In this document: piece by piece, positions 42,609 to 63,492 of the stretch
Layout: each line of letters begins with the position of its first letter
Position numbering within the stretch: position 1 is the first letter of the stretch
Source: Candidatus Latescibacterota bacterium
Lineage (GTDB): Bacteria; Latescibacterota; UBA2968
Length of the DNA stretch: 64,000 bases
Direction: 5' to 3'
NCBI GenBank assembly: GCA_965116885.1
Contig: OZ220741.1
Location: 1,408,001 to 1,472,000, forward strand
Notes under the pieces: generated by a model
Database searches by the model: none
What the model was told of the DNA's origin: nothing
Seen by the model: the letters and a program-made list of their open reading frames with translations, nothing else
Translations under genes and position numbers: made by a program

Positions 42609-42631
42609 CTCACAAGGTCACGTCCAATTTG

Positions 42632-43987: not shown

Positions 43988-43992
43988 ATCTC

Positions 43993-45144: not shown

Positions 45145-45249
45145 CGTACCACCTCGAGATTCTGGTCTCATCAGGACGGCTATATTTTGTCTTGAATTGT
45201 GGGGCATTACATGATATGCTTATTTTGCGGAAGAAAAAATAAAAATAAA

Positions 45250-45283
45250 AGGCATACTTCACCCGTCAAAGCAAAGTATGCCT
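45250..45283. promoter_or_regulatory. Conserved inverted repeat (candidate operator), copy A
   Basis: AGGCATACTT-N14-AAGTATGCCT; identical arms at 63493-63526. Confidence 0.6.
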
Positions 45284-45391
45284 CCGACCATATCACCAAC
45301 CCATAAGCGAGTTGGCTTGATAAATAATTTCTATTCTTCGATGCTCGTTGTCGAAATTTTTTTTATACAATTCACACAGTTGAGGGACGCG

Positions 45392-45526
45392 ATGGTGAAT
45401 GAGGTCGTGACCATCAGGGTCTCCACACACCTTAAACAACATTGCGGCACACTTGTAATGATGATGACCAGGCATTTTAATAAAAAAAGAGCGGGTCCTT
45501 TTTGGCTCGCTCTTTTCAATACTTAA
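45392..45526 (+). pseudogene. 5' stub of the XRE-HTH/pentapeptide gene
   Basis: MVNEVVTIRVSTHLKQ matches MVNEVVATRISKHLKQ at 63636; homology ends at about 45440. Confidence 0.7.
45482..45516 (-). terminator. Rho-independent terminator closing the RiPP operon
   Basis: Minus strand AAAAGAGCGAGCC-loop-GACCCGCTC-TTTTTTT. Confidence 0.75.
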
Positions 45527-45596
45527 CGCAGAACTAAAGATGCTTGAGATGTTATCAGTGAGGTCCTAACAGGAAGGCCCACAGAGATCTCCAATG

Positions 45597-46943
45597 CTAT
45601 AATTTAAAGACGTGATCTTTCTTTCCCGATACAACCTGCGTGGCATTGCGCGTATCGACAATATAGCGCGCGTGCTTTACTATCCATTCATAATCCCAAT
45701 CGCTGTGATGGGTCACAATCACCACACAATGGGCTTCTGTTATATTTTTTTTATTCAAAGAGGTACTCTTCAAGTCCAAACTTTCTGTCTGCAAGTGATC
45801 TACAAACGGATCGCAATACGAGACTTTCGCCCCTTTCTCCTGAAGCATTTCTATAATATCCAATGCCGGCGACTCGCGAATATCGCGTACATCGGGTTTG
45901 TACGTCACGCCCAATATCAGGATGTTCGCGCTCTTCAAACACCGCTCGTATTCGTTGAGTGCGTCGGTGATTTTTTCGACCACATAGCCCGGCATGCTGC
46001 GCGTCACTTCGCTGGCCAATTCGATAAAGCGCGCATTGTAATTTAAGGTCTTGAGCTTCCAGGCCAGAAAGTGAGGATCAACTGGAATACAATGCCCGCC
46101 CAACCCAGGACCGGGATAAAACGGCATAAACCCAAACGGCTTGGTCGCTGCGGCATCGATTACTTCCCAAACATCCACCCTTAGCCGGTCACACATCAGG
46201 GCCACTTCATTGACGAGGCCGATATTTACACTGCGAAAAGTATTTTCGAGCAACTTGGTCATTTCAGCAGCCTGGGTCGATGAGACCGGTACGACTTCGC
46301 CGATCAATTGTCGGTAAAAATGCGTGCCTATTTCTGTGCAAGACGGGGTAATACCCCCCACGACTTTGGGCGTATTGGTGATGGTATAAACTTTATTGCC
46401 CGGATCGACGCGCTCTGGAGAAAATACCAGAAAAAAATCTCGACCAACTTTCAAGCCACTTTCTTCGAGCAGGGGCAATACCAGTTCATGGGTCGTACCT
46501 GGATACGTCGTGCTCTCCAAAATCACCAGTTGTCCGCAGCGCAGTCGGTCTTTGATTGCATCACATGCTTGTACAATAAATGAGACATCCGGATCGCGTG
46601 CTTTATTCAAGGGTGTGGGCACACATACCACGACCACATCGGCTTCATTGAGCACATTGAATTCTTGTGTTGCTGTCAGTTTTCCCACAGCTTTAAGACT
46701 TGTCACCTCAAATTCCGATACACCCTGCACATCGGACTTTCCCGATTCTACTATCTTTACTTTGCGGGCGGATGTATCGATTCCCGTGGTGGAAAATCCC
46801 GCCTTACCTAATGCCACAGATAAAGGCAATCCCACATACCCCAATCCCATCACTGCCACCTGTGCCTCGTGTGACGCGATCTTCTCCTCCAGAATCTGTC
46901 TGGAATCGACGCTTCCCCAGGGTAATCTTTCTGTCAGGGCCAT
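45597..46943 (-). CDS. UDP-N-acetylhexosamine 6-dehydrogenase (WecC/WbpA family)
   Basis: GLGYVGLP, CVPTP, LESTTYPG, SPERVDPG, KLLENTFR, GPGLGGHCIPVDP. Confidence 0.93.
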   Translation of the reverse strand: MALTERLPWGSVDSRQILEEKIASHEAQVAVMGLGYVGLPLSVALGKAGFSTTGIDTSARKVKIVESGKSDVQGVSEFEVTSLKAVGKLTATQEFNVLNEADVVVVCVPTPLNKARDPDVSFIVQACDAIKDRLRCGQLVILESTTYPGTTHELVLPLLEESGLKVGRDFFLVFSPERVDPGNKVYTITNTPKVVGGITPSCTEIGTHFYRQLIGEVVPVSSTQAAEMTKLLENTFRSVNIGLVNEVALMCDRLRVDVWEVIDAAATKPFGFMPFYPGPGLGGHCIPVDPHFLAWKLKTLNYNARFIELASEVTRSMPGYVVEKITDALNEYERCLKSANILILGVTYKPDVRDIRESPALDIIEMLQEKGAKVSYCDPFVDHLQTESLDLKSTSLNKKNITEAHCVVIVTHHSDWDYEWIVKHARYIVDTRNATQVVSGKKDHVFKL

Positions 46944-46988
46944 TGTGTCATCCTCTCAGAATAAATCTATTTGATTTTCAGGACAGGA

Positions 46989-48095
46989 TTAACTTTTTAA
47001 TTCAGCAACGATTCGCTCTGCGGCATTGCCATCCCACAACTCAGGTAAGCGACCAGATTTATAGTGCCCATTCAAAACAGATTCAGCCTTTGCGACAATG
47101 CGTTCGGGACAAACGCCCACCAGTGTGTTCGTCCCAATATCTATAGTCTCTGGTCGTTCTGTATTCTCTCTAAGCGTCAAACACGACACACCCAAAGCCG
47201 TCGTCTCTTCTTGCAATCCCCCTGAATCTGTCATCACAAATTTTGCATTCTTCTGAAGTTTCAAAGAATCGAGATAGCCCACCGGATCCATAAGTTTGAT
47301 ATGGTCCATCATCTCAAGCTTTTGCAAAAAACCGAATCCGGACAGGCGATTGCGGGTTCTCGGATGCAAAGGCCACGCGATGGGACATTTGAGGGCTTGC
47401 AACGCGGATGCAATACCAGCCAACGTATCTGAACAATCGACATTTGAGGCGCGATGGAGGGTTAGAAAAACGTATTCTCGAATCGATAAACCGTGTATGT
47501 CCAGAATGCGGGATTCATCGGCTTTGGGGGATAGCAACATCAGAGAATCTATCATCACATTGCCCACAAAATGAATGCGGCTCTCTTCTATGCCTTCGCG
47601 CCTCAGATTTTCACATGCCTGCATTGAAGGTGCAAACAGAAGATCGGATATAGCATCCACCACAATTCGATTGATCTCTTCGGGCATTGACCGATCCCAA
47701 CTTCGCAACCCCGCCTCTATGTGTCCAACGGGAATTTGCAATTTCGCGGCATCCATCGCACAGGCTAAAGTGGAATTTACGTCACCGACGACAAGCACCC
47801 AATCTGGTTTTTCCGACAATAAAACCTCCTCAAAGCCCATCATGATCTGCGCTGTCTGGTGCGCGTGACTGCCCGACCCCACATTCAATTCATAATGCGG
47901 TCTGGGTAGATTTAAGTCTCGAAAGAAAATATCGGACATCAGATCATCGTAGTGTTGTCCCGTATGGACCAGAATCGGCTCAAACCAATCGGGTGTCTCG
48001 GTCAGTTGATTCCACAGCGGGGCAACTTTCATAAAATTGGGTCGCGCACCTGCAACAAGGATAATTTTCACCTGTGTTCTCCTCAATGGTGTCAT
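46989..48095 (-). CDS. wecB: UDP-GlcNAc 2-epimerase (non-hydrolysing)
   Basis: GARPNFMK, HTGQHY, GDVNST, HIEAGLRS, MPEEINR, TDSGGLQEE, TERPE. Confidence 0.95.
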   Translation of the reverse strand: MTPLRRTQVKIILVAGARPNFMKVAPLWNQLTETPDWFEPILVHTGQHYDDLMSDIFFRDLNLPRPHYELNVGSGSHAHQTAQIMMGFEEVLLSEKPDWVLVVGDVNSTLACAMDAAKLQIPVGHIEAGLRSWDRSMPEEINRIVVDAISDLLFAPSMQACENLRREGIEESRIHFVGNVMIDSLMLLSPKADESRILDIHGLSIREYVFLTLHRASNVDCSDTLAGIASALQALKCPIAWPLHPRTRNRLSGFGFLQKLEMMDHIKLMDPVGYLDSLKLQKNAKFVMTDSGGLQEETTALGVSCLTLRENTERPETIDIGTNTLVGVCPERIVAKAESVLNGHYKSGRLPELWDGNAAERIVAELKS

Positions 48096-49282
48096 TTATT
48101 TAACACACGATTATAGATGTCAAGCCACTGTGCTGTTTCTTGAGTTGGAGAAAATTGGTTTTCCACTTTATGTTTTGCGGTCTTCCCAAGCCTTTTTCTC
48201 AGTTCTGTATCCTCAAGTAATAGTTGCAATTTTTGGGATAACATATTGGCGTCACCAGAGGCAACAAGAAGGCAATCCCTATTATCTTCAACTATATCAA
48301 GAATACCACCAACTTGAGAGGCCACAATGGGCAGTTCGCAGGCCATCGCCTCCAAGAGTGCATTTGGTGAACCTTCATGAAGCGAAGGGAAGGCAAAAAT
48401 ATCCATCTCCCTCATCCACGCCATCACTTCTCGATGTGGAATATAACCCGTAAATACAATGTGCCTTTTTATCCCCAGATCACTGATCTGCTGCAACATA
48501 TCTCTTTTATAGGATTCTTGTGCAAACTGACCTACAACGAGCAAATAAGAATCGGGATAAACTTTAACAATCTCTCCAAATGCCTGTAAGAGAATGTGAA
48601 ACCCCTTTATAGGCCGCAAAAATCCAGCAGTTCCAATGACTGTGCCACCTTGTGATTTCATCCGTAAAAAGGTTTCAGTAAGTACTTGCAGTCTATTATT
48701 ATGCTCTCCTGTTATTTCTGGCAGTGCGCGTACATCAAATATTGACACATCAAAAACATTGGGGATGACCTTTCCTGCTTTGATGCTTACCGTTCGACGC
48801 ATTTTTTGCATGAGTTCAGATGATACTGACGTTACATAATCGGCCCGTTCTAATACCCACCTTAGATTTGCTAAGTGTTGGATGCTATAGCGCAAGACTT
48901 CCCAATCGCTACCTCGAACACTGGCGATGAAAGGTCGCTCAATTTCAGCAGCCACGACTGCACCTAAAAAGCCAGGAGGCATAAGAAAAGCTGCATGAAC
49001 CAGGTCAAAACGCTGTTTCTGATGGAGTTTTACAATGTAGTTACCAAGCACCTGTAAACCATGCGGATCAGCATGATAATCTGATAATATTGAAAAAGTC
49101 CGATGTACTGTCACCCCATCTTCTACGACAGGTGAAATTTTATCTCTTAATTGATGGGGACCCGGCGCAATAATATGGATATTGACATCCCTTTTTGCCA
49201 GATTCTGGGCAATCCGATAAATTGCACTTCCCACTCCTCCTGGGTATGGTGGATATTGGTAGGTAACCAAGCAGATGTTCAT
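48092..49282 (-). CDS. GT4 glycosyltransferase
   Basis: PYPGGVG, KGF, PSLHEGSPNALLEAMA (E-x7-E). Confidence 0.92.
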   Translation of the reverse strand: MNICLVTYQYPPYPGGVGSAIYRIAQNLAKRDVNIHIIAPGPHQLRDKISPVVEDGVTVHRTFSILSDYHADPHGLQVLGNYIVKLHQKQRFDLVHAAFLMPPGFLGAVVAAEIERPFIASVRGSDWEVLRYSIQHLANLRWVLERADYVTSVSSELMQKMRRTVSIKAGKVIPNVFDVSIFDVRALPEITGEHNNRLQVLTETFLRMKSQGGTVIGTAGFLRPIKGFHILLQAFGEIVKVYPDSYLLVVGQFAQESYKRDMLQQISDLGIKRHIVFTGYIPHREVMAWMREMDIFAFPSLHEGSPNALLEAMACELPIVASQVGGILDIVEDNRDCLLVASGDANMLSQKLQLLLEDTELRKRLGKTAKHKVENQFSPTQETAQWLDIYNRVLNK

Positions 49283-49292
49283 GCTTACCTCC

Positions 49293-50600
49293 TCAGTGTA
49301 TGCCTGGTGTTCTTGGCTTTCGTATCACCAGCAGGCCCCATCGCACTATTGTCTTAGTTGATCTCATCAGCCTTTTCATCATTCGATATATAGCAAAACT
49401 TAACATCAAGATGAGTAGAGAAGGAAAAAAGAACCTTGACAGGGCACTCCCAATATTTTTCCAATCTCCAGCGGCAAAGCCGCTTATTATCTCGCTAAAA
49501 GTCTTATATACAAGACCGGGATAGTTTGAAATCAAATCGGGAAAGAGAAAAAAAATCTTGTAAAAGAACAAGACGAAGAAGCTGGCACTGACAATTCCAT
49601 ACACGCAGAGAAACGATTTTATCTTCCCACTGATGCGTAAAAAAATAGGTTCAGCAATCTCTCTCTCTCTTAAAATGAAACGCTTGACAAAGTATTTCAG
49701 AATTTCTAAAGATCTTTTTCTGAGATTTGGCACGCCTGCTATATCTGAAAAAAGCCAATACCCATCAAATCGGAAAATTGGATTCAAGTTAAACAGTGCT
49801 GACCCGTAGTTAAAAAGAATCAAAAATAAAAACACGCTACTTGCTGTCGTCAGATACAGTATGAAGAGTATAGGAATAAAAATAAGCTGAAAATATATAC
49901 CTCCGAAATCCACCATCGCACGTTGCATTCTCGGTAGCCTCCAGGCATCCGTTACATTAGAATAAAGAACGGGAAAGCGCAGATACAATCCTATCCCAAT
50001 CTCTCCGGGTGACGCGCCATAATAAGCACAAGCTGAAGCATGACCTAACTCGTGGAAAATCCCTAAAACACCAAAAATTATCAGCGTTAGAATCGTATCT
50101 TGAAACGAAATATCATAAATAGTAAAGTCTATGACTTGGAGTTGAAAAAAATAGAAATACCCAAAAAAGACAAAAGAGAAAAAAATAAAAGAGATCAAAA
50201 TTTTTGGATAAAAAAGAGTCTTGAGAATATTACTAACGGCATGAACCGCATTCGCCCGCATAAAAGGGTATTGAAAATAAAAATACGAATTGCTTGTTTG
50301 AGCATCTACATCTGAGGTTGTATTTTCAAGGATTCCGTAGGGTTTTAGAAATGAATGGATAATTGCAGCAATGTCTTTGGCAGAGTATGTCTTATTCCTG
50401 ATAGAAGAGTATGCGCTTGCAATTTCAGACAGCGTTTTTTTGCCGTCTATCAACTCGATGATTTGATAGACACCCTCGCTTATTTCAAACCGTTTCGTGC
50501 CTATGCACAAAACATAACTTTCCTCTACTAAAGCGGTATCGAATTTATACATAGAGATTTTCGGAACCAACTTAATCGGATCTGGTAGGGATTCTTGCAT
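49293..50600 (-). CDS. M50-type membrane zinc peptidase with N-terminal PqqD/RRE-like domain
   Basis: HELGH, NLNPIFRFDGY, TM helices; N-terminal IIELIDGKKTLSEIA typical of PqqD-like RREs. Confidence 0.82.
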   Translation of the reverse strand: MQESLPDPIKLVPKISMYKFDTALVEESYVLCIGTKRFEISEGVYQIIELIDGKKTLSEIASAYSSIRNKTYSAKDIAAIIHSFLKPYGILENTTSDVDAQTSNSYFYFQYPFMRANAVHAVSNILKTLFYPKILISFIFFSFVFFGYFYFFQLQVIDFTIYDISFQDTILTLIIFGVLGIFHELGHASACAYYGASPGEIGIGLYLRFPVLYSNVTDAWRLPRMQRAMVDFGGIYFQLIFIPILFILYLTTASSVFLFLILFNYGSALFNLNPIFRFDGYWLFSDIAGVPNLRKRSLEILKYFVKRFILREREIAEPIFLRISGKIKSFLCVYGIVSASFFVLFFYKIFFLFPDLISNYPGLVYKTFSEIISGFAAGDWKNIGSALSRFFFPSLLILMLSFAIYRMMKRLMRSTKTIVRWGLLVIRKPRTPGIH

Positions 50601-50750
50601 GGTGTATTCCTGTCTTGACTCTAAGAGACTATTTTAAAAATCCTTCCGGGAGCGCAGGCGTCACGCTGTTTTCACCCATCGCCTATTTGGTCCCAAATGG
50701 ACATGAGAATGCTTTGTCTATGCAAGTCTCTGAGGGTTTTAAAATAGCTT

Positions 50751-51752
50751 CTAAGGGTTTTCGGTTTCCATTACAAGTTTACTCACTCGATCAATTTCTT
50801 GCTCCTTATGTTTTTGCAGATTGCGGAGCAAAACGGACATTTCAGATATGCTATGGTCAATCGCAATCTCCCAGTCCGTGCAGGGTACCTGATGAACATA
50901 AGACAATGCCTGTCTATAGCAATCTATTGCATGATCGAGAATTTCTTCTGCCAGCCCTGTAAAGTAAATCATACGCGCAAGTTCTTCCAGGGTAACGGAT
51001 TCTAATTTTTCGTGAAGCTCCTTTCTGTCAATGATTTGAGACAAAAGGTACGAATATCTGCCAGCGATAAAGTCATCTCTCCAATTTTTAAGATCATTAT
51101 GAAATTGTAAGCCCGTAAAAAAGGCATCTAAGGATTTTTCAAGAAGACGGATCAATTCCGGTGAGTCAGACAAACAGGCTAAAGCAGTTGTCACCATCTG
51201 GATTGTGGCGGCTTTACCAGAGGCAATATCAAACGCCTCATCCAATGAATAAAATGTGGGATTATTCCATTTTGTTCTTTCTTGTAGTGTTGCAGCAATG
51301 GCGCGACGCTGATACTTTTTGGCAAAGGCCCAAAAATCCGAACCTGGGGGGAATAAGTCATTGAGAAGACCAAACGCATGATCTCTCAAAAGAGAAGCAA
51401 AAAAATAGGCATCTACTTTGAGAGTCTCCCGCTCATCAAAAACATCATCCATATACGATGTGTAGATGTATAATGACCGATTGACAAAATACAATTTCTG
51501 CTGTGTGTCTTCGTCCAGGACAAATACCTCCGAGAACTGCGATGTAAAGGAAGTATGTACATCAGTGGATAGAAATACGGGATATTGTTTTAGGGCAGCC
51601 TCCAGATCATATTCTTCACATATCTGAGACATAAATTGATAAAATTCGACTTCGGATTTTTTGATTGAGATATCATCTTGAAGACCAAAGTTCAGTGAAG
51701 CAATTTCATCCTCAATAGAGGCAAAGGGGTCTGATGGCAAATGTGTATTCAT
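50751..51752 (-). CDS. Class I isoprenoid-synthase-fold protein (candidate ComQ-like peptide prenyltransferase)
   Basis: DDVFD (DDxxD), SGKAA, GLQFHNDLKNWRDD second metal motif. Confidence 0.7.
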   Translation of the reverse strand: MNTHLPSDPFASIEDEIASLNFGLQDDISIKKSEVEFYQFMSQICEEYDLEAALKQYPVFLSTDVHTSFTSQFSEVFVLDEDTQQKLYFVNRSLYIYTSYMDDVFDERETLKVDAYFFASLLRDHAFGLLNDLFPPGSDFWAFAKKYQRRAIAATLQERTKWNNPTFYSLDEAFDIASGKAATIQMVTTALACLSDSPELIRLLEKSLDAFFTGLQFHNDLKNWRDDFIAGRYSYLLSQIIDRKELHEKLESVTLEELARMIYFTGLAEEILDHAIDCYRQALSYVHQVPCTDWEIAIDHSISEMSVLLRNLQKHKEQEIDRVSKLVMETENP

Positions 51753-51809
51753 GTCAAGGTCCTTTTTGAAAACTTTAAAAAGAGATAGGTTTCTGAATCA
51801 ATTCATAAA

Positions 51810-54440
51810 CTACTGCAGGGATATTGAATCACCATTGACAGGCGCGTGACTATGCTGACGTGTCTCCTTGAGGAGTGTATTATTCCCCAAAAGATTGGTG
51901 CAGCCCGAAAGGCTATCAATAAATGAAAGCGTCTGTTCTGTACCATTTAGGTTAAGCTCGTGGGTAAGAGATTTTTGATGGGATAAATGCTGCATAATAC
52001 TGTCTGCGACGCTATCAGGCGTCAGGTCAACCGGATCAATTTTCTTTACCAGTCCCAAATCGGACAGCCTACTTGCTCTGATATCTTGATCTTCAGAGAG
52101 TAAACTCGGTACAAGGAGTGCTGGAGTACTGGTTTCCAGAATATTGACACAAGTATTGTAACCCGCCCGGCTGATTACAAGATTGGCTGCCTGCATCCAT
52201 TGAAGAAAATCAGGTGTATATCGCCTTATATAGAACGGGCCCATTTCACACATTCGTTCCAAAGTCTCGTATTGGTCATCATTGATAAACGGGCCAGGAA
52301 ATATGACCATTTTCCAACCATCCATCTTTCCCTGTTTATGCAGCAATTTCCAGGCTTTGATACAAGGCACAATAAGCTCGTAACCGTCAACACCACCACC
52401 TGCGCTAACCATCACAAAGTTCTCTATGTTCTCATCTGGTTTTCTACATATCCCGTCATGCGGCTTTTCAGAGACATATCCAGTATATACAATCGGTATG
52501 ACAATATCTTCTATCCAGGGGAAATATTCTTTTAGTTGGGTCACGCTCGGATCTCCATGAACAAGCAAGGCATCAAAGTAAGCATTTAATGTCGGACAAA
52601 CTTCCTCATAGTATCTTTTAGCTTTATATAGGTCCTGGTCTTGAGGGGTCAGGAGGTCAGGTCTTTCTACATTAATACTCGAATGAGGCTTAAAAATATC
52701 AGCCGTTCTCGCCCGTAGCGGAATATCGCGCAAAGAGCAGATGATATGAATATCCGGAATTTTTGATTTAACCATTCCCAACAGGTATTGTAATTCTGGG
52801 CGTAGCTTCCATCGACCAAAGGGAAAATGTTCAATCATAATTACATCTGGCTGGATGTCTGTAACCGTCTCTGTCAATTTAATTAGCCTTTTCTCGAAAG
52901 TCTCCCGGATACCTTGATCCTCGTCTTCAGAGGCTAATCCCTCCGGCGTAAGTGAAATAGGCATTAATTGGATTAAATTAATGGATCCCTGCATTTTGAA
53001 ATCGGGAATTGGGCGTCCCCCATTCACAAAGTGAACGTCGTAATTTTGGGATAGTTCACGAGCGATTTGAAGGTTGCGAAAGTGATGGCCCATGCCAACG
53101 AGATGCTGGCTATACAGGATGATACGCTTCCTGCGGGATCTTGATAGTGGCTTGGATGCCCGATGTCGTTTTCCCTGGGTCGCGTGCTTGTATATGGGTT
53201 CATAATTTGCCACTACTTGCTGCCAATCTTTGTGTTCCGAAATCCACTGTCGTGCCCGATGCCCAAGTTCCGCTCTAAGTTGTGTATCTTCAATTAAAGC
53301 CGAGCATTTCTGCGCGAGATTCTCTGGATCATCAGCATTACATATACGCCCCGTCGTGCCGTCATCTATAATTTCCCGAAGCGCAGCCACATCGCTGACA
53401 ATGACGGCTTTTCCCATTGCCATGGCTTCATACGGCTTAATAGGGGTCACCAATTCCGTTACGCGGCTTCGTACTCTGGGTATGACAAAAATATCAATCA
53501 AGGCATAATAGTCGAAAACATCTTCGTGTGGTACCTGTCCTGTAAAGTGTACAACCGAGTCTAAACCCAATTCTGTTGCAAGCCGCTGAAGTGGTTCTAC
53601 CTCATCTCCACCACCAACAATGAGAATTTTAATCTGAGGATGACGAGATAGGAGCATTTTTCCTGCTTTGAGAAGCCAACGAAGACCTTCAAGTTTTCTG
53701 ATTGAACCAATATGTCCGATGGTTACGCTATCGGAACCAAGCCCTAATCGCTCTGCCAAATGGGTTGGGTACGGTCTCGGTGTAAATTTCGATGTATCTA
53801 CACCATTGGGAACAATGAAAATTTTGTCTTCAGGAATCCCTTCTCGGATAAACTCCTCTTTCATTGTTTCAGCCAATGTGACGACCTGATCGGCTCGTTT
53901 CATGGCCTCTACAAACAAAAAGTGTCGGTGCTGATATGCTTTTGAAGAAGTATCAAGGGTTCCTGCAACCACGCCCGTTTCATGCCATAATCCGCGCACT
54001 TCATAGATCACAGGTAGGTTGTATTTGTGTCCGACTTTAGCTGATATTAATGCATTCTGGGCAGGAGAAGCAACATGGATCACCTCGGGTTTGTGAACTT
54101 CGACAACACGAGAAATATGATTCTGAAACTGCCGTTGCAATCCCTCACGATGTAATGCAGCAGAATATCGTGTCTGACGAAAACCAAGGTCATGGAAATG
54201 TTGATCAAGCAATGCCTGGGTCATGTCGTTCAAGTACAATACCCCATCCAGATACTCCTCTTCAACAAGAAATTTACTGTCTATAAGATGAGTGTCTTTG
54301 AAGCGGGTTGCTACAATAGGTTCAAGCCCTATTCTACTCTGGGTATCAAAGATATATTTGCTTCTGATTGTGTAACCCGCCTGTCGAGATCGCAGAGAAT
54401 AATCCAAAACATGTAGGACCTTCATAACTAAACCTTTCAT
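51810..54440 (-). CDS. Fused double glycosyltransferase (GT4 + GT28-C-like)
   Basis: N-half GYTIRS, YEVRGLW, VTPIKPYEAMA; C-half YSQHLVGMGH, EHFPFGR, SAGGG, SRAGYNT, EDQDIRA. Confidence 0.88.
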   Translation of the reverse strand: MKGLVMKVLHVLDYSLRSRQAGYTIRSKYIFDTQSRIGLEPIVATRFKDTHLIDSKFLVEEEYLDGVLYLNDMTQALLDQHFHDLGFRQTRYSAALHREGLQRQFQNHISRVVEVHKPEVIHVASPAQNALISAKVGHKYNLPVIYEVRGLWHETGVVAGTLDTSSKAYQHRHFLFVEAMKRADQVVTLAETMKEEFIREGIPEDKIFIVPNGVDTSKFTPRPYPTHLAERLGLGSDSVTIGHIGSIRKLEGLRWLLKAGKMLLSRHPQIKILIVGGGDEVEPLQRLATELGLDSVVHFTGQVPHEDVFDYYALIDIFVIPRVRSRVTELVTPIKPYEAMAMGKAVIVSDVAALREIIDDGTTGRICNADDPENLAQKCSALIEDTQLRAELGHRARQWISEHKDWQQVVANYEPIYKHATQGKRHRASKPLSRSRRKRIILYSQHLVGMGHHFRNLQIARELSQNYDVHFVNGGRPIPDFKMQGSINLIQLMPISLTPEGLASEDEDQGIRETFEKRLIKLTETVTDIQPDVIMIEHFPFGRWKLRPELQYLLGMVKSKIPDIHIICSLRDIPLRARTADIFKPHSSINVERPDLLTPQDQDLYKAKRYYEEVCPTLNAYFDALLVHGDPSVTQLKEYFPWIEDIVIPIVYTGYVSEKPHDGICRKPDENIENFVMVSAGGGVDGYELIVPCIKAWKLLHKQGKMDGWKMVIFPGPFINDDQYETLERMCEMGPFYIRRYTPDFLQWMQAANLVISRAGYNTCVNILETSTPALLVPSLLSEDQDIRASRLSDLGLVKKIDPVDLTPDSVADSIMQHLSHQKSLTHELNLNGTEQTLSFIDSLSGCTNLLGNNTLLKETRQHSHAPVNGDSISLQ

Positions 54441-54565
54441 AATGAACTCTGAATAAACCGTGAGTGAGGTTTTTTAGGGATGATGTCCCGCTATCATCAC
54501 GATAAGGCCGTCTGCCTTGGTGAAATACAAATTCGGATAGTGCATCGCCTATAGACACCGGAATA

Positions 54566-57500
54566 TTATGGCGCGAAAGGGTGGCGTGGTGTGATTTTAT
54601 CCACAAAACGCCATCGTACCGCATCGGCATACAAGGTCCCCTTTGCGCGGTCAGACAATTCGACTACAGCCTCTACTCCCTCGACAAATTTGTATCGCCC
54701 CAGGTGATTCCAGCCCGCTTTCATAAGATCGCGCTCCATTTCAAGCGTATCGACCTTATCCGCGTGAAAAACAGTAAGTGTAAAGGTCGTACCAATGCCC
54801 TCGCGCCTGGCTATTGCGGGATCGGGAAAATAGAAGCCCACATCAAACTCGCCATCTCTGGGGATTCGCGCGGCCCACACAGCCGGCTGTGCGCCATCGC
54901 CCGGTTTCTTTTGCCGATAATTTTTTGTATACCGCCCATAAGCTGTCGGCAGGCTACGCTCGCGCCAGTTGCCCCCTTCAAGACCGGGACGAGAGTAGCG
55001 CGTCGTTCGCCGAATCGGCATTGAAAATCCCTTGTCGTCATTATCTACAATGATCTCAAAAGGCCCCATATCTGCACGGATTACATCCCCTTCTCCTGTC
55101 ACATCTTTGAGATAGGCCATGGGAGTCCCCCCTGTAACCTGTTCAGGAACGCGCACAGGAGAGATAAGCGGTTGGCGATTGCGTGCAAAAAAGGGTTCGA
55201 CGATCACCCGCAAGGGTTGCTCCCACAGCACCATCGAAACTTCGATTTCCTGACCGCCTTCAATCTCTACGCCCTTTACTGCCTCATCATTTTGACCAAT
55301 GGCCGTGATTTGCACATAGCCCCTGCCGGGTTCGCTATTCTTAATGCGCACAATCAGTTGGTAAACTAGCGTTCCGGAGCCATCGTCTACCTTCAAGGCT
55401 TTTACACTTGTCAATTTATAGCCCGGGATTTCCGTGCTATATATCCAATCTTTAACCAGACGCTGTAATCTCTGGCGATTTTCATCTTCGGTGTAGCCTG
55501 CGGCGGCACGTTCAAAGGTCGAAAAATCGATGTCCTTGTATTTGTAATTCTGGCTAATGTCGGCCAAGAAGGTGCGGAATGTTTCTTCACCCAAAAAGGA
55601 GGCGAACATCCCAAAGAGTGCAGGCCCCTTGGCGTCGAGAGCCTGGCGATAAAGGTCCGCCTCCTGTTCGGGATCTAAATCGGCAAATGACTTGCCCTGC
55701 ATCTCGGCAATCAGCTTGTTCCAAGCTCTCGTTTTTCTTCTGCTTATAAACGCCGCCTCGCGCGCCCTGTCACTGTTGCGTCGTTGGCTTGGGTAAAAAG
55801 CGGCTGTTAGATCGGTTCTCAAGTCATTCTGTAGATACATGGGCAGACCCTTTTTAAGCAGGGCATAATGGTCGCCCACAAACTGCTTGTCATAAGCCCA
55901 GAGTTGAAAAACAGGGCTACGAAACAGTCCATTGGATTTTATTGCCGCGTTTTCTTCAGAAAAAAAAGTTGAAAAAATGGCGCGTATCAAAATATCCTTT
56001 TTAACATTTTTGGGATCTTGATTCGATTGCTTTTGTTTCTTTTGGATAACCACCTGCCGCAAGAGCACATCTTCTTCAATCATCAACACGCCCGGCTGTG
56101 TCAGGCCGCCCTTTTCTTCCCAGCCTTCGTAATACCACTGAATATGGAACGGAACTTCCACCAGTGAAAGGCTCGGATAGGGATATTTCATGCCAGATTC
56201 CTGTTCCATGAGATCCACGATTTGCCCGAGCGCACGCACAATCTCTTTTTTTGCACCTTCAAAAAATTTAATCGGACGCAGATGTGAAGGATGCACGTAA
56301 AGGGCACATTCGATGTCGTGAATGGTGGCGCGATACACGCGATATACACCAGCATTGAGCGATAGGACAGGCACGGGATTTTCAACAACCCATTGGCGGG
56401 TCACTTGTGTGCCGAGGGTATCGGTCTTGCCGATCTGCCCCTGGGTAATGACTTCGAGACCTTTGGGAAATGTGATATGCAAGTTGGCCGTTGAAAAAGA
56501 GACCGGGCGCGCATTTTTATAGCCATAATCAACGCCCGTGACGGGATACCAGCGGCTTCGCGGCGGCAAAAAGATGGACTTGTCGCGAATCCACGCCGTC
56601 AAAGAGCCACTGTACCCCTTATCTTTCCGCAACCTCGGTTTGCCTTTTTCTCGCTTGAGATCAAAACCATCCGTGTTAATATCACCCGCATATGCTAACG
56701 TCAGATCGAGTTTTTGTTCCGATTGCAGGGGGGTAGTGGGCACGACACTAATCACGCTTTCCGTCCGCTCCCATGCTATTGCTCTGCCATCAGCGTGCGT
56801 CAGACTTTGGATTTTGAATCCGGGATTGAGTGAAAGAATCAACGTATCGAGCGGGGATTCGTGAGGATTTCTCAAGCTAATCGTGCCAGAGGTTGTAAGT
56901 AGCTCCTCTCCCAAAAGCGTCAATGCCAGATCGTAATGGGTGATTTCCGCTACGGAAATATGTGCAATCGCTTCCTGCTGCGCGAGCAAGGACTGGCGAT
57001 ACGCTTGCCTATTTCGAGCTTCCGCATCCACATAAAAGTAAAGACCAGCAGCCAATCCAAAACCGGTCAACGCACATCCCCAGCCAAACCACCGCGCAGT
57101 CGCAGAATGTGCAAGACGGGGATATCGATCAATCGCAAATCCCAAAAAACTTATGCCGAGCAAAATGTAAAACACGCGTTGCAAACCCACTTGCGTCATA
57201 TTCCCTATGCCCATCAGGTCCGAATAATCCATGTGGGTCGCAAGAGAAATGAAATCGAAGAGGTCGGGATATTGTTTGCCCAGATATAATATCACAGCGA
57301 GCGAATACGCTGTTGCGACCAAGGCAGCCGCTATTGGACGACGCAGCAAGACGCCTAAAAAAAATGTCAGAGAAGACATAAAAACCAAGGCGGGTAGGTT
57401 CAAGAGCACGAGGTATAAAATATAAGGTTTGACTGTCAGTGGATTGCCCGTCATGCTGATCGTTGCTGCCTGAAGGCCCAGAGTCAAAAACAGGATCCCA

Positions 57501-57856
57501 AGGCTAAAAAAGAAAAGCGCGCTAACCGTGCCCAGATACTTACCCGCAACCAGTTCTGCCGTTGAAATAGGACGCCCGGCAACTACTTCATAAATGTGGG
57601 CATTTTCGTCAGCCGCTCTAAAAGACCCCGCCATAAATGGAATGACAAGGGTTTGAAATAAAGTGTATATAAGAAAAAGAAAGTAAGATTCTTTTCCCGG
57701 AGGCATTCCAAATTCAGTATCTATGGCAAGACGAATGCCGTAATAAACGAAAATGCCCAAGGGGAAGATGCCCAAAATGCGAAATTTTGTAGTTCTCAAA
57801 AGCATTTTGCGCTCATAGCGTGCAACACCAAGTATATTGTTGAGAATAGAGAACAT
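54566..57856 (-). CDS. ABC permease fused to degenerate M1-aminopeptidase-like domain and C-terminal beta-sandwich
   Basis: N-terminal TM block (RPISTAELVAGK); LNPG, WYP, YPY..L.LVEVP M1 scaffold without HExxH; GWNHLG...ADAVRW tail; start MFSILN with AGGAG SD. Confidence 0.75.
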   Translation of the reverse strand: MFSILNNILGVARYERKMLLRTTKFRILGIFPLGIFVYYGIRLAIDTEFGMPPGKESYFLFLIYTLFQTLVIPFMAGSFRAADENAHIYEVVAGRPISTAELVAGKYLGTVSALFFFSLGILFLTLGLQAATISMTGNPLTVKPYILYLVLLNLPALVFMSSLTFFLGVLLRRPIAAALVATAYSLAVILYLGKQYPDLFDFISLATHMDYSDLMGIGNMTQVGLQRVFYILLGISFLGFAIDRYPRLAHSATARWFGWGCALTGFGLAAGLYFYVDAEARNRQAYRQSLLAQQEAIAHISVAEITHYDLALTLLGEELLTTSGTISLRNPHESPLDTLILSLNPGFKIQSLTHADGRAIAWERTESVISVVPTTPLQSEQKLDLTLAYAGDINTDGFDLKREKGKPRLRKDKGYSGSLTAWIRDKSIFLPPRSRWYPVTGVDYGYKNARPVSFSTANLHITFPKGLEVITQGQIGKTDTLGTQVTRQWVVENPVPVLSLNAGVYRVYRATIHDIECALYVHPSHLRPIKFFEGAKKEIVRALGQIVDLMEQESGMKYPYPSLSLVEVPFHIQWYYEGWEEKGGLTQPGVLMIEEDVLLRQVVIQKKQKQSNQDPKNVKKDILIRAIFSTFFSEENAAIKSNGLFRSPVFQLWAYDKQFVGDHYALLKKGLPMYLQNDLRTDLTAAFYPSQRRNSDRAREAAFISRRKTRAWNKLIAEMQGKSFADLDPEQEADLYRQALDAKGPALFGMFASFLGEETFRTFLADISQNYKYKDIDFSTFERAAAGYTEDENRQRLQRLVKDWIYSTEIPGYKLTSVKALKVDDGSGTLVYQLIVRIKNSEPGRGYVQITAIGQNDEAVKGVEIEGGQEIEVSMVLWEQPLRVIVEPFFARNRQPLISPVRVPEQVTGGTPMAYLKDVTGEGDVIRADMGPFEIIVDNDDKGFSMPIRRTTRYSRPGLEGGNWRERSLPTAYGRYTKNYRQKKPGDGAQPAVWAARIPRDGEFDVGFYFPDPAIARREGIGTTFTLTVFHADKVDTLEMERDLMKAGWNHLGRYKFVEGVEAVVELSDRAKGTLYADAVRWRFVDKITPRHPFAP

Positions 57857-57933
57857 GGGATTACTCCTGTTTAAGCGATCAGCTTTCAGCCTCTCCCTCC
57901 ACATCTAAAGGCGAGAAGCGAGCCTTGTTTTCT

Positions 57934-58833
57934 TCATCCCGCGATTTCATCAGCGGTGTTGCTGCCCATAAAATAGAGATATGCATCTTCGAGATTGGGT
58001 GCGACCACTTTGGCATCAGCGGGTGGCTCGCCATCGCCCACCATCCGAACACTCAGGCGATCACCTTCAACATTGACCGTCACCACATGAAACACACGCG
58101 ACAGCTTTTCAAAGTGAGGCTCATCAACACGTATTTGCCACGTCTTGCCATCGGCCTTTGAAATGAGGTCTGATGGAGAGCCGCGAAAGATCAGTTGTCC
58201 ACGATTCAAAATCGCGAGATACTTGCAAGTGCTCGAAATATCACCCACAATATGCGTAGAGATCAAAATTACACGATCGCTGCTCAAGCGACCTAAAATG
58301 CCTCGAAACCGGATGCGTTCTTCCGGGTCAAGCCCCACAGTCGGTTCATCGACAATCAGAAAACCTGGATCGGTCAAAATGGCCTGTGCAATGCCAAGAC
58401 GCCGTATCATGCCACCGGAAAACGTACCCGTGCGCCGCTTGCGTGCATCGTACAACCGGACTTCATTCAATGCTTGTTCAACACGCGCCAAACGCTCGCT
58501 CTTATTGTGGATGCCACCCAAAACAGCCATATAATCAAGAAATTCCCAGGCGGTTAGTTGTCGATAGGTGCCAAAATTTTGTGGCAAATATCCAAGGCGT
58601 CGGCGAATTTCTGTGCGGTCTTTTACCAGATCGAACTCATCCATGGTCACGCTGCCACTCGATGAGTCCATTTGGGTCGATAAAATTTTAATCAGTGTTG
58701 TTTTGCCCGCGCCATTGGGTCCCAGTAGGCCAAATGTTCCGTGAGGAATGCTCAAGGTGATATCGTCCAGGGCAGGCGCATCGCCGCGCCGATATGTTTT
58801 TGTCAGGTTTGAGATGCGAATGACCATCAGCAT
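57934..58833 (-). CDS. ABC transporter ATP-binding subunit
   Basis: GPNGAGKT, FSGGM, IVDEPT, STH. Confidence 0.95.
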   Translation of the reverse strand: MLMVIRISNLTKTYRRGDAPALDDITLSIPHGTFGLLGPNGAGKTTLIKILSTQMDSSSGSVTMDEFDLVKDRTEIRRRLGYLPQNFGTYRQLTAWEFLDYMAVLGGIHNKSERLARVEQALNEVRLYDARKRRTGTFSGGMIRRLGIAQAILTDPGFLIVDEPTVGLDPEERIRFRGILGRLSSDRVILISTHIVGDISSTCKYLAILNRGQLIFRGSPSDLISKADGKTWQIRVDEPHFEKLSRVFHVVTVNVEGDRLSVRMVGDGEPPADAKVVAPNLEDAYLYFMGSNTADEIAG

Positions 58834-58872
58834 GCCTCCTGAATATTTTACGCGATCAAAAAAGTATAAGAA

Positions 58873-58921
58873 TGGTCAAGACCACCTATCTTTTGACAAA
58901 CAATATAAGTGGTCTTGACCA
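58873..58921 (-). terminator. Stem-loop downstream of the precursor gene
   Basis: Perfect 13-bp inverted repeat TGGTCAAGACCAC / GTGGTCTTGACCA, extendable with a G-U pair. Confidence 0.65.
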
Positions 58922-59013
58922 GCAAACTAAGCAAAGACCTCTAACAATAACTTCTACGGCTTGCTCCTACAGTCCTCAATACCACAATATTATTACTGCC
59001 GTAGAGCTCGCTA

Positions 59014-59250
59014 TTAGCTGTCGATCGTGCAGTCGTGTTCTCCACAAGAGCCTCCGCCGATGTCTTTTCCACAGTCATGCCACAGACAAAAGCCATCATC
59101 ATCATCCGTGGTGCAGTCATGAGTGATGCACCACATTTCCAACCTTTCTTCAAGCGCATCAACGACCAGATCCTCATAGAGTTCAGGATACGACGCGATG
59201 TGTGCTTTGAGTTCAATCTCTGAAGAGATGTGAGCAGACAAATTAGCCAT
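59014..59250 (-). CDS. Putative RiPP precursor peptide (39-aa leader + 39-aa Cys/His/Asp core)
   Basis: AGGAGG SD 8 nt upstream; directly after the rSAM gene; core WCITHDCTTDDDDG FCLWHDCGKDIGGG SCGEHDCTIDS. Confidence 0.85.
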   Translation of the reverse strand: MANLSAHISSEIELKAHIASYPELYEDLVVDALEERLEMWCITHDCTTDDDDGFCLWHDCGKDIGGGSCGEHDCTIDS

Positions 59251-59345
59251 GATACTACCCTCCTGGTGTTGAAACGTGAACAGATAACATCGGCGTTTCT
59301 ACTACTTATCACACATAATGCCTCCTTTCTCGAGCGTTATACTTA

Positions 59346-61052
59346 CTATAAAGTTTGTTGTTTGTACTCCTCAAATACCTCAGGCACGACCGTATGGAAA
59401 ACCTTGGGATACTCATCGCAATAGGACGTTTTGATATTGCCATCATTTTTTACATAAGCATGTGCAGCACATCCACCGCCACAAAAGAATGCATATTTGC
59501 ACTTACTGCAAGATGGCACATTAGAAATATTCCGATCATACCATTCTGATAAATGTTCATCATTGAATTCAACTTTATCCAAATAATTTCCAACTTTGTA
59601 CCGGTCTACACCCACCAATTCCCAACACGTATAGAGGTCTCCATAAGGATCAAGGATCAACATACCGTTCTGTGCGCCACAGAAGATGGGCCTAAAACTT
59701 AATAGCCCTTTACCATCAAGAGCTCGCTTGAAGGTCTGTCTAATGCCAGCATCTTGGCAAGAAATTTGGTGCATTAAGTCGGGATTTTCTTTTACAAACT
59801 GATAGTATTTGCGAGTAAACTCTCTTCTTGGCATCACCGAAACTTCTCCATTTTCAGAACGTACGGATTCCATTTCAAGCACAATGGGGCTTGTGCCTTT
59901 GCGGTAGTTCGAAAAAATTTCTTCCTCTCGTTCCACATCGATATATTGCTCTTCATCTATGTACACTCCAGGATCAAAAATTTCCTGTTCCTGGGGCTCA
60001 TTGTCCTTGAAAGATATGACAGAGGCAACAGACTCGGAGGGTTCAGAATCTGATGTTGGTGCTTCAATTGAAATAAGAGGTGCCGTCTGACCATAATTGC
60101 CTGGCGTCTTTTTACCAGACATTGTAGCACTACACGACATGCCTTCTTCAATCTGATGTACCAAGGCAGAATAGGCCGAAAATTTCGGATACTCTGTAAA
60201 TCCTCTATCTTTGAACAAATCAAATAATGCAGGTAAAATATCCACATTGTCGTAATCTGTATTGATTCGCATTGAAACTTGCACATCAAGCGACAGAGCA
60301 AGTGCCACATTTTTCATGATCGCACCAAAACTATCTCCTGCACGATAATGTGGACGCTTGCGATTGTGATTTTCTTCTTCGCCATCTAAGGTAATCTGGA
60401 GGCGTCTGATTTTTTGGGGACCTAATAAATCCGTGAAATGATGAAGGTCATAGCCATTTGTAATCGCAGAAAAGATGTAATCGCGTTTCAAACCTTCATC
60501 TACAATATACCGCACGATCGCTTTATTTTTTGCTAACAAAGGTTCTCCCCCATACAGAGTAATGTTCTTGCTATGCATGGCTCTGTTGGGTTGAATTTCG
60601 CACATGGCCTGGTATGCCCGGTCAACCATCTCCTTTGTAAAGACTTGCTTTGACCAGCCCTTGCCATGAGATGAAATGTCATTTTCAAAACAATAAGGAC
60701 AGCGGAAGTTGCAATCGTAGGCCACCAAGAATAAGAAAGATGCAGAGCTTTGGCTTGAGTTGTGGTGGAGAAAATTCGCCATGCTATGCACGTATTCTCG
60801 TTCTTCCACAGGAGAACGACTGGTCAGATAGCCACGCTTCATTAAGGTTTGGATCGTTTCTTTTGAACAAGGCAGTTCATCAAACATATCTTCCGAGAGA
60901 ACAACCTTGCTTTTGATCATCTGAGCGACTTTTTTATTTACTCTATCTATTGCGCCTGTATAGCCATGAACGAGCAAAGTGTAATCTGGATCTTCAGGCA
61001 GCTTGACACAAATCGTATAGGACGATACGCGATATAATTCTGAATTTGCCAT
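59346..61052 (-). CDS. Radical SAM/SPASM peptide maturase
   Basis: CNFRCPYC, YGGEPLL, ITNG, QITLDG; SPASM CGA...DPYGDLYTC...CSKCKYAFFCGGGC...C; N-terminal RRE-like region. Confidence 0.93.
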   Translation of the reverse strand: MANSELYRVSSYTICVKLPEDPDYTLLVHGYTGAIDRVNKKVAQMIKSKVVLSEDMFDELPCSKETIQTLMKRGYLTSRSPVEEREYVHSMANFLHHNSSQSSASFLFLVAYDCNFRCPYCFENDISSHGKGWSKQVFTKEMVDRAYQAMCEIQPNRAMHSKNITLYGGEPLLAKNKAIVRYIVDEGLKRDYIFSAITNGYDLHHFTDLLGPQKIRRLQITLDGEEENHNRKRPHYRAGDSFGAIMKNVALALSLDVQVSMRINTDYDNVDILPALFDLFKDRGFTEYPKFSAYSALVHQIEEGMSCSATMSGKKTPGNYGQTAPLISIEAPTSDSEPSESVASVISFKDNEPQEQEIFDPGVYIDEEQYIDVEREEEIFSNYRKGTSPIVLEMESVRSENGEVSVMPRREFTRKYYQFVKENPDLMHQISCQDAGIRQTFKRALDGKGLLSFRPIFCGAQNGMLILDPYGDLYTCWELVGVDRYKVGNYLDKVEFNDEHLSEWYDRNISNVPSCSKCKYAFFCGGGCAAHAYVKNDGNIKTSYCDEYPKVFHTVVPEVFEEYKQQTL

Positions 61053-61105
61053 AAGAAAACCTCCCTTGGATTGCGTGGGTATTATATTTTTTTATCCATA
61101 TACGC

Positions 61106-61294
61106 TTATTTTGCGAAATAGAGACATATTTCACCAGCCAATAACGATTGTTGTTCTATCTCTCTATTTTGCTGGCTCATTCTACGCATCATCGCGCGCA
61201 AGGCTTCAGATCGAACTTCATCGTTCCAGATAGCATAGAGTAAGGCGAGATGAGCCAAATGATCGCGTTTTGTTATCTGTGTCTGAGCATTCAT
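61106..61294 (-). CDS. Small protein (62 aa), first gene of the RiPP operon
   Basis: GAGGTG SD; paralogue at 42216-42383. Confidence 0.7.
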   Translation of the reverse strand: MNAQTQITKRDHLAHLALLYAIWNDEVRSEALRAMMRRMSQQNREIEQQSLLAGEICLYFAK

Positions 61295-61345
61295 AAGTCA
61301 CCTCAGTAAATTCTGATGTCGTTATTGTCTTTGCACGTTATATAT

Positions 61346-61361
61346 GGCAAGATGCGTGCCA
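61346..61361 (-). promoter_or_regulatory. Sigma54 promoter of the RiPP operon
   Basis: TGGCACGCATCTTGCC. Confidence 0.88.
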
Positions 61362-61383
61362 TAAACTCGTTCGAAATAAAAAA

Positions 61384-61413
61384 AAGCACTTGAATACGCT
61401 CAAGTGCTTGAAA
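61384..61413. promoter_or_regulatory. Inverted repeat / IHF-like site between enhancer and promoter
   Basis: AAGCACTTGA-N6-TCAAGTGCTT; minus strand TTTCAAGCACTTG resembles WATCAA-N4-TTR; related site at about 42472-42500. Confidence 0.55.
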
Positions 61414-61467
61414 AATAAAAAGATAAAACTTTTATGTTTTAAGTGCTATAAGAGCAAAAGGGATTAA

Positions 61468-61509
61468 GTGCAACATTCATGTTACACTTTTGGAACATTC
61501 ATGTGGCAC
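61468..61509. promoter_or_regulatory. Tandem palindromic upstream activator sites (copy B)
   Basis: GTGCAACATTCATGTTACAC and TTGGAACATTCATGTGGCAC, offset by 22 bp, 107-148 bp upstream of the -24 box. Confidence 0.65.
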
Positions 61510-61578
61510 CTGCTGCTGTCGGTTGACCAACCATGACCGCTAAAAAGCGAGAGGCTGGTGGTGGCTGACGGCTGGTCG

Positions 61579-62967: not shown

Positions 62968-62972
62968 CTCTC

Positions 62973-63391: not shown

Positions 63392-63492
63392 TATCTTACC
63401 TTGAGATTTTGGCCTAATGGACAGGTCCATTTTTGTCTTGAATTGCGGGGCATTACATGATATGCTTGTTTTGAGGAAAAAATAAAAATAGA

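Follow-up and report, generated by a model that had tools for sequence, protein, structure and literature searches.

The radical S-adenosylmethionine (rSAM) enzyme PapB joins Cys and Asp within CX3D units and tolerates 0-6 intervening residues (PMC10739248), and ranthipeptides, a group of ribosomally synthesised peptides that undergo modification after translation (RiPPs), are defined by non-alpha links (PMC11002830). In daptides the leader, marked by the motif ELExMEAP, is cut off by MpaP (bioRxiv 2023.03.08.531785). All characterised peptide prenyltransferases resembling trans-isoprenyl diphosphate synthases (IDS) are reported to be Trp-specific (PMC13290415); features of the group are a first Asp-rich motif and a Gln (PMC13290415, PMC10853753). 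ChrPC is described as a fusion of IDS-like and squalene-cyclase-like parts (PMC13290415), ComQ as devoid of the second Asp motif, and PalQ as carrying Gln197 three residues before D200 and remaining active as a D200A/D204A mutant (PMC10853753). A gene cluster combining relatives of all these enzymes resides in a stretch of 64,000 nucleotides (hereafter the window; contig OZ220741.1, positions 1,408,001 to 1,472,000) of a Candidatus Latescibacterota bacterium, whose genome, G000, is a single contig of 5.56 Mb. The best explanation, to which we give about an even chance, is that this is a sigma-54-activated RiPP cluster for a stapled and probably prenylated peptide, with sugar genes that are add-ons of the Latescibacterota. 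The observations concern genes, folds, motifs and synteny, and from these all chemistry is inferred.

Eleven open reading frames (ORFs) run on the minus strand from 61294 to 45597, with intergenic gaps of -4 to 180 nt, in the order given by an earlier note on this DNA. Four of them concern us most: an rSAM/SPASM peptide maturase of 568 aa (59346..61052), a precursor peptide of 78 aa (59014..59250), an IDS-like protein of 333 aa (50751..51752) and an M50 metalloprotease (49293..50600). Pfam and NCBIfam profiles back the assignments formerly made for the rSAM/SPASM protein, the ATP-binding cassette (ABC) ATPase and permease, the double glycosyltransferase (GT), the GT4 enzyme, WecB and the sugar dehydrogenase; neither the IDS-like protein nor the precursor nor a 62-aa ORF at the head of the cluster had a match.

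The rSAM gene is rare within the phylum, being found in 4 of 168 genomes, at five loci; the IDS-like gene occurs in 3 of 61 phylum genomes, the M50 gene in 3 of 31 genomes of the family. Outside this group, a GTDB scan in which the best 80 of 364 rSAM relatives were taken (79 loci) yielded, after subtraction of the five close loci and addition of two metagenome loci, 76 distant loci from several phyla; a third metagenome locus, lacking the rSAM gene, was left out. All distant-locus counts rest on these best 80 relatives and the two metagenome loci. The rSAM ORF was called in 69 of the 76 loci, the M50 gene in 49 and the IDS-like gene in 19, among which 13 are of a long, cyclase-fused type. Where at least 7 kb of downstream sequence is available (49 loci), 43 have the M50 and 17 the IDS gene. 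None of the 76 has wecB, ugd (the sugar dehydrogenase gene), the double GT or the permease, and the single GT4 match, a weak one, lies 7 kb upstream. Pfam was also used to scan 54 neighbours, of which 40 lie at 17 distant loci with the IDS gene (plus strand, at least 180 aa, within 9 kb); no glycosyltransferase was met among these 40. The conserved core is therefore made of rSAM, precursor and M50 protease, often with the IDS module.

The close loci, all labelled Ca. Latescibacterota, are variations on this core. In G020a the whole 11-gene order is repeated, with insertion-element-like ORFs and a sulfotransferase between GT4 and wecB; the ratio of nonsynonymous to synonymous change (dN/dS) is 0.14-0.22 for nine genes compared with the window. 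The G001 order is rSAM, precursor, outer-membrane-protein-like gene, S41 peptidase, GT1, IDS, M50 and GT4, and the G020b order rSAM, precursor, receptor-like gene, IDS, M50, methyltransferase and GT4. The G018 locus has permease, rSAM, two precursors, Sel1 proteins and a GT4-type half; no IDS or M50 gene was found in it. In G016 (L105:1501-1584) a relic of the cassette consists of a precursor fragment with the leader alone, which continues into a Sel1-repeat gene. L023, a contig of 4.4 kb labelled Gammaproteobacteria and probably mis-binned, encodes the same leader and an rSAM of 82% identity. A large sister family without IDS gene occurs in Bacteroidales (L034, L037, L042-L080); its precursors, up to six per locus (L034), carry the same leader, then TDPL and a second hydrophobic segment.

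The precursor has a conserved acidic leader ending in LEERLEM (LE[ED]RLEM in the family) and a hypervariable 38-aa core; it belongs to a leader family adjoining homologous rSAM genes (11 close, dozens distant), and the acidic LExRLE leader is common to precursors across phyla. The core features three Cx4C units, four CxxxD units (1.3 expected, p 0.012), two Trp (W41 and W58), no Tyr and a C-terminal Ser. In 11 related cores, which host 82 Cys, Asp is found at Cys+3 37 times (13.7 expected), Cys at +5 27 times (13.0 expected; 0/2000 shuffles in either case) and Asp or Glu at Cys+4 26 times (16.8 expected), figures which overstate the enrichment since the cores are kin and repetitive. The maturase (PF04055, and TIGR04085 above cut-off) carries CxxxCxxC at 114-121 and seven SPASM Cys that do not vary among six aligned sequences; its best PDB match, 5wgg (E 2e-19), is CteB (PMC10352776). 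The locus thus has an rSAM/SPASM enzyme beside a Cys-rich precursor and regular Cys-acceptor spacing, as expected of ranthipeptides, in which the acceptor is Asp, Glu, Thr or Asn. The enrichment of CxxD and Cx4C, the seven SPASM Cys, the match to 5wgg and the CX3D precedent of PapB make ranthionine stapling the likeliest chemistry, and by analogy the rSAM enzyme probably forms ranthipeptide-like, non-alpha Cys-Asp thioethers.

Some observations weigh against this. Across the family, Asp at Cys+4 (the CxxxD spacing of the window core) shows no enrichment (17 against 13.4 expected), and there are distant cores with one Cys and little Asp, so that the chemistry may differ. In addition, the rSAM enzyme stays below all equivalog cut-offs (PapB 116/340, CefB 130/600, ScfB 99/425 bits), its best profiles being CefB, geopeptide and PapB. 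The enzyme could form another kind of link, be it an alpha-thioether, a Cys-to-aromatic bond or something else, with the Cx4C units as its true determinant; the like has been proposed for the uncharacterised Cys-every-fifth family. The rank of CefB, a weak match of one relative's precursor to CefA (E 0.0016), the excess of Cys at +5 and the occurrence of single-Cys distant cores with a neighbouring aromatic residue agree with such a link. Yet the strongest enrichment is that of Asp at +3, all six Cys of the window core have Asp at +3 or +4, and the nearest solved relatives are CteB-type; a different link is accordingly held improbable, and Cys-Asp stapling is retained. Being acidic and hypervariable, the core points to a product that acts as a signal or at surfaces more than to a cationic antibiotic.

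Residues from about 305 to 430 of the rSAM protein form an acidic low-complexity insert, mostly absent from two aligned distant homologues. A second, unrelated rSAM cassette is present in the same genome at three paralogous loci (G000:C1 near 259000, 1925000-1926500 and 83000), two of which were seen behind a giant kinase/activator gene. In sponge Latescibacterota, ranthipeptide clusters predicted by antiSMASH are mentioned without detail (PMC12993501).

The M50 protein features HELGH at 183, NPIFRFDG at 273 and five hydrophobic segments, and is hit by the daptide protease profile at E 9e-35. Assignment to the family, with its HELGH/NPxxxxDG pair, is sound; the RiPP recognition element (RRE) also claimed for it corresponds to a weak PqqD similarity (E 0.004 over 17-85). 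By analogy to MpaP, this RRE-M50 intramembrane metalloprotease would remove the leader at the membrane.

The IDS-like protein is, by predicted fold and motifs, a stand-alone homologue of trans-IDS-like peptide prenyltransferases. An AlphaFold2 model from an 84-sequence alignment (pLDDT 90.4; only 37 from the single sequence) matches trans-prenyl synthases (4lob: Z 22.8, root mean square deviation 2.7, 274 residues), and Ord1 ranks 45 among the structural matches. The isoprenoid-synthase fold attributed to this protein by the earlier note is borne out, as is the first DDxxD motif (D102/D103/D106), but not the second, which reads N219-D220-x-x-N223. Q216 is kept three residues before the second motif, the arrangement of Q197/D200 in PalQ. 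Fold, first Asp-rich motif and Gln are hence those of peptide prenyltransferases. Chain-elongating IDS carry RRG after the first Asp motif; RRG is missing here, and a chain-elongating function was rejected. A profile search retrieved 842 relatives; in 28 that were scanned, a squalene-cyclase-like domain was detected in 15 of the 18 long ones. No cyclase family was met among the cluster proteins in the profile scan. From these features the protein is proposed to be a ChrPC/PalQ-type peptide prenyltransferase without cyclase, which would, at about even chances, prenylate one core Trp, W41 or W58; its link to ChrPC is inferred. Leader-dependent prenylation after cyclisation has a precedent, there by an ABBA-type enzyme (PMC12715784); steromaze, the chemistry associated with ChrPC-type maturases, is only named in PMC13647313.

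The prenylation machinery formerly announced is present as a trans-IDS homologue; activity of this very copy is no more than plausible, its second Asp motif being altered. Positions 219 and 223 are Asp in 147 and 146, respectively, of 149 distant homologues, and Asn in the window. In a tree of 55 rows, NDxxN marks one clade of 7 (support 100/99) nested in the intact Latescibacterota enzymes, which in turn group (99/97) with the stand-alone enzymes of L011, L027 and L035. At five active-site positions (D102, E158, G179, K180, Q216), deviations amount to 8/35 cells in the NDxxN clade versus 5/70 in 14 intact relatives. The points above speak against an active enzyme, and the protein may be a dead scaffold; the product would then be only a cross-linked acidic Cys/Asp peptide, perhaps a metal binder or signal, and the sugar genes would act on the envelope. 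In favour of a dead scaffold, the Asp-to-Asn changes at the two near-invariant sites go back to one origin, 4 of the 7 clade members have further changes at D102, E158, K180 or Q216, both known cores of the clade have lost the Tyr-Ile motif seen with intact stand-alone enzymes, and in G018, which has an rSAM and two precursors, no IDS or M50 gene was found. Against a dead scaffold, the clade is under purifying selection (dN/dS 0.18; 0.16-0.18 for the IDS-fold gene), the window copy keeps D102, D106, E158, K180 and Q216, and PalQ tolerates the loss of the same two Asp (PMC10853753). On this basis we regard a dead scaffold as rather unlikely, and estimate from sequence that the probability of the window protein being catalytically active is about one half.

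The type of IDS enzyme and the aromatic residues of the core go together. Core Trp, mostly just before the first Cys, occurs in 13/13 loci with a long fused-type enzyme and in 9/21 loci without IDS gene (Fisher p 6e-4, the loci being kin). Intact-motif stand-alone enzymes (8 loci) are all accompanied by a core Tyr; in 6 of the 8 there is no core Trp, and Tyr-Ile lies beside the first Cys. Such early Tyr-Ile is found in none of the 21 loci without IDS gene, though 15 have Tyr somewhere. The core next to the fused enzyme of L074 reads C-W-I where the intact stand-alone loci show C-Y-I, and the two NDxxN loci have Trp-Cys core starts and no Tyr. In the core closest to that of the window, from G018, in which no IDS gene was found, both Trp are replaced; the other G018 precursor starts with W-C, which runs counter to the correlation. 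These few independent enzyme-core pairs make it conceivable, at somewhat less than even chances, that the stand-alone clade contains Tyr-directed peptide prenyltransferases. There are hints that in the window sub-clade the acceptor switched from Tyr to Trp together with the change from DDxxD to NDxxN. That such a switch to Trp is combined with glycosylation of the same stapled core by the GT4 enzyme, giving the first glyco-prenyl ranthipeptide, seems improbable.

The long-enzyme loci merit a mention of their own. L026, L028, L029, L032, L033, L039 and L060, and likewise L074, L076, L083, L084, L088 and L096, combine rSAM, precursor, M50 and a long prenyltransferase(-cyclase) with Trp near the first core Cys, and are candidate sources of terpene-cyclised, cross-linked peptides. 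A search with the fused enzyme of L026 returned no Chryseobacterium-named protein among 35 matches, most of which are without names; if the chr cluster resembled L026, the rSAM-prenyl pairing would be already published.

The remaining cluster genes concern transport and sugars. Downstream of the precursor lie an accessory ABC ATPase (57934..58833, PF00005), with an 83% paralogue elsewhere in the genome, and a protein (54566..57904) in which profiles reveal an ABC-2 permease, an M1-peptidase-like region and a Golvesin-C domain; the M1-like part was rejected as an active leader peptidase because it has no HExxH. An accessory double GT (51810..54440; GT4 N-half, GT28-like C-half by profile) precedes the IDS-like gene. 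Behind the M50 gene come GT4 (48092..49282, by profile), separated by 10 nt, and accessory wecB (46989..48095), overlapping GT4 by 4 nt. WecB is a non-hydrolysing UDP-GlcNAc 2-epimerase (TIGR00236, 340 vs cut-off 210), as predicted; the last, accessory gene (45597..46943) encodes a UDP-HexNAc 6-dehydrogenase-like protein of Cap5O/WecC type which exceeds the TIGR03026 cut-off, though the WecC equivalog is not passed. The best PDB match of the dehydrogenase is Cap5O, and its nearest relatives are Cap5O/UDP-ManNAc dehydrogenases, from which a fair guess for the donor is UDP-ManNAcA or UDP-GlcNAcA.

The earlier note read the cluster as a single pathway to a peptide that is stapled by thioethers, prenylated and glycosylated with HexNAc(A), for which WecB and the dehydrogenase would supply the donor. 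In its favour, the 11-gene order recurs in G020a under the selection mentioned, spacing around GT4 is tight, none of the five Latescibacterota loci is without a GT (an observation that also bears on the add-on status of the sugar genes), and the orthologue clades of GT4 and of the double GT N-half occur nowhere but at rSAM loci or a relic. With 80% identity or more, the GT4 next to M50 turns up at 5 places among 31 genomes, namely at four rSAM-IDS-M50 loci and in a truncated relic, and with 41-49% at 16 other places; the double GT N-half is found at 70% or more only in the rSAM loci of G000, G020a and G018, and 15 paralogous places have 47-53%. The cluster of cacaoidin, a glycosylated lanthipeptide, also encodes a GT4 (bioRxiv 2020.05.20.105809). 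The distribution of the donor genes speaks against the single pathway. In the family, wecB is present in 19/31 genomes, ugd in 27/31 (three copies in G000) and the permease in 28/31 (20/20 other genomes of the genus; second copies adjoin the rSAM in G000, G020a and G018), versus 3/31 for M50; wecB and ugd are in 2 of the 5 close loci and in none of the 76 distant ones. They also occur with GTs and without this rSAM: G015 has ugd-wecB-GT-GT4 behind the same response regulator, at the very chromosomal site of the window cluster, and a different island, in G017, combines wecB and a ugd of 95% identity with a double GT, an exporter, a precursor-like ORF and the other rSAM type. In G020a the inserted ORFs and sulfotransferase split GT4 from wecB, and the GT set varies by locus. 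The triple modification is therefore thought distinctly unlikely. As a genus-wide pair absent from the distant loci and found without this rSAM, wecB and ugd were rejected as core genes, and glycosylation by HexNAcA is not supported as a core feature of the product initially proposed; what stands of it is a RiPP locus with putative rSAM cross-linking, leader removal by RRE-M50, and a precursor-linked IDS homologue across phyla.

The sugar module is mobile and not specific to the window peptide, with wecB, ugd and the double GT drawn from the sigma-54 islands of the genus. The refuting case that the note itself had named, GT and wecB genes out of synteny with rSAM-precursor pairs, applies in part: the 76 distant loci show no such synteny apart from the one weak and remote GT4 match, and for GT4 it holds in 4/4 M50 loci of this genus, and in this genus only. 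GT4 is the sole sugar gene co-segregating with the core and the only good candidate for glycosylating the peptide, a role which we advance tentatively, as possible but on balance doubtful. That similar GTs repeatedly neighbour other precursor-like genes in the genus is a further argument against viewing the sugar genes as mere add-ons, and speaks for some sugar role. In G006 (L100:10743-11486) a relic of the cassette has a 5'-truncated GT4 with an outer-membrane/S41-peptidase pair. At G000:C1:4281495-4294296, 2396500-2407700 and 3009900-3016700, and at L108 in G017, GT28-like/GT4 genes, often with wecB, adjoin a small precursor-like ORF, which in some cases has a double-Gly site, as well as the gene of a large ABC protein resembling exporters; these islands are possibly a genus-wide glycopeptide export system.

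A sigma-54 -24/-12 box (61347..61361, minus strand) precedes the cluster. It is an exact match, with an identical copy at 42436-42450; exact sites number 55 in the whole genome, and sites with one mismatch are at chance level in the window (7 seen, 5.1 expected). The promoter previously noted is hence real as an exact box, but belongs to a unit of histidine kinase, response regulator, promoter and ORF repeated on both cluster flanks. A sigma-54-type box (relaxed pattern) lies 76-370 nt before the rSAM gene in 5/5 close loci, in differing upstream contexts. The sigma-54 response regulator at 61579..62967 (minus strand; PF00158 and PF00072), which has a 79% paralogue at 42632-43987 and counterparts upstream of the rSAM in G020a and G001, is from its sequence the probable activator of the cluster. 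The flanks (42246-45440 and 61157-63684) are 85-92% identical units of PAS histidine kinase, sigma-54 response regulator, promoter and small ORF, with 89% identity between 61157-61452 and 42246-42540; the kinase copy on the upstream side is truncated, and the same flanks occur in G020a. At the same site, G015 has the sugar module without rSAM.

The first gene, a 62-aa ORF (61106..61294, minus strand), is present as described, but cannot be called a specific RiPP gene because it is part of the unit duplicated on both flanks; it has three genomic copies, each behind a sigma-54 box, and was rejected as second precursor or RRE. Only 76-81 nt lie between box and rSAM in G001 and G018, too little to house it. 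ORFs of about 55-62 aa directly behind sigma-54 boxes form a family (61106-61294, a copy ending near 42231, G000:C1 near 1090469). At the other end, the terminator formerly placed at 45482 is recognisable on the minus strand as a hairpin with a U run (45516-45482, fold z -4.6) kept in G020a (z -4.0), though a consensus terminator scan of the window did not pick it up; its inner part is inverted between G000 and G020a (45482-45516 vs L006 near 9283-9318). A stronger stem-loop (58920-58874, minus strand; z -6.8, G020a equivalent z -3.1) lies 3' of the precursor and may be an mRNA stabiliser or partial terminator. Transcription as a single unit from promoter to terminator, with this hairpin in between, is putative.

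Taken together, the sigma-54 activator would switch on the cluster, and the hairpin downstream of the precursor would probably cause this peptide to be made in excess. The rSAM/SPASM enzyme may bind the acidic leader and staple core Cys to nearby Asp, the IDS-like enzyme may prenylate W41 or W58, and GT4 may add a sugar to the peptide; RRE-M50, like MpaP in daptides, would then free the peptide of its leader at the membrane, and export may follow through the recruited ABC-2 system. The data depict a modular RiPP family (rSAM, LExRLE-leader precursor and RRE-M50) that takes up plug-in modules (prenyltransferase, prenyltransferase-cyclase or GT) and spans Bacteroidota, Ignavibacteriota, Chloroflexota, Acidobacteriota and Latescibacterota. 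For uncultivated Latescibacterota the cluster offers a concrete natural-product pathway, sigma-54-controlled and amenable to expression. Matching enzyme type to core aromatic residue offers a direct test of acceptor choice by trans-IDS-like peptide prenyltransferases, and a Tyr-directed enzyme of this kind would, if true, be a new lipidation biocatalyst.

The earlier note did not recognise the combination from any characterised RiPP class. Each part has a known counterpart, but the combination of rSAM, LExRLE leader, RRE-M50 and IDS is apparently undescribed: no description of the cluster type, the leader family or a prenylated ranthipeptide was met in the mostly open-access literature covered. 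The layout resembles yydFGHIJ, as the note had remarked, but the likeness does not extend to the family level. Like MpaP and the epipeptide protease YydH, the M50 protein joins an RRE-like N-terminus to an HExxH intramembrane protease, and the window leader shares an acidic ELE-type motif with daptides; the scores (120 vs 300 and 49 vs 225, NF058609) fall short of either family. Thr decarboxylase, aminotransferase and methyltransferase genes of daptides are missing from the cluster and the core ends in Ser; no epimerase profile is found among the 25 best of 60 rSAM profile matches and, unlike epipeptides, the core is Cys/Asp-rich. Membership in either group was rejected on cut-offs and partner genes.

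PapA/PapB (freyrasin) and CteA/CteB (thermocellin) also place an rSAM/SPASM enzyme with seven auxiliary Cys beside a Cys/Asp-rich precursor, but the leader is different, the motifs of the window family are CxxD and Cx4C, and the window has RRE-M50 and IDS-fold partners and an acidic rSAM insert. The Cys-every-fifth system CefA/CefB (NF038108/NF038107) shares the best rSAM profile and the Cx4C spacing, whereas the window rSAM is far below the cut-offs and the peptide has no CefA match. A GT4 in a RiPP cluster recalls cacaoidin and the rSAM-associated GT4 of TIGR04157; the score with the latter is only 65-68 vs 400, and the window peptide is at most a putative acceptor. PalQ and ComQ, Trp prenyltransferases, are alike by their described features (the fold agrees, the first Asp motif is there, Gln stands three residues ahead of the second, and RRG is absent), while the window substrate is a long, leader-bearing and presumably cross-linked precursor with internal Trp. 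ChrPC-type prenyltransferase-cyclases would belong to the same trans-IDS-like family, many homologues of the window protein being IDS plus squalene-cyclase-like fusions beside Trp precursors; the window protein, likened to ChrPC by description only, is stand-alone, with 333 aa and an NDxxN second motif. PapB/CteB, the daptide RRE-peptidase and ChrPC are thus closer models for this locus than yydFGHIJ.

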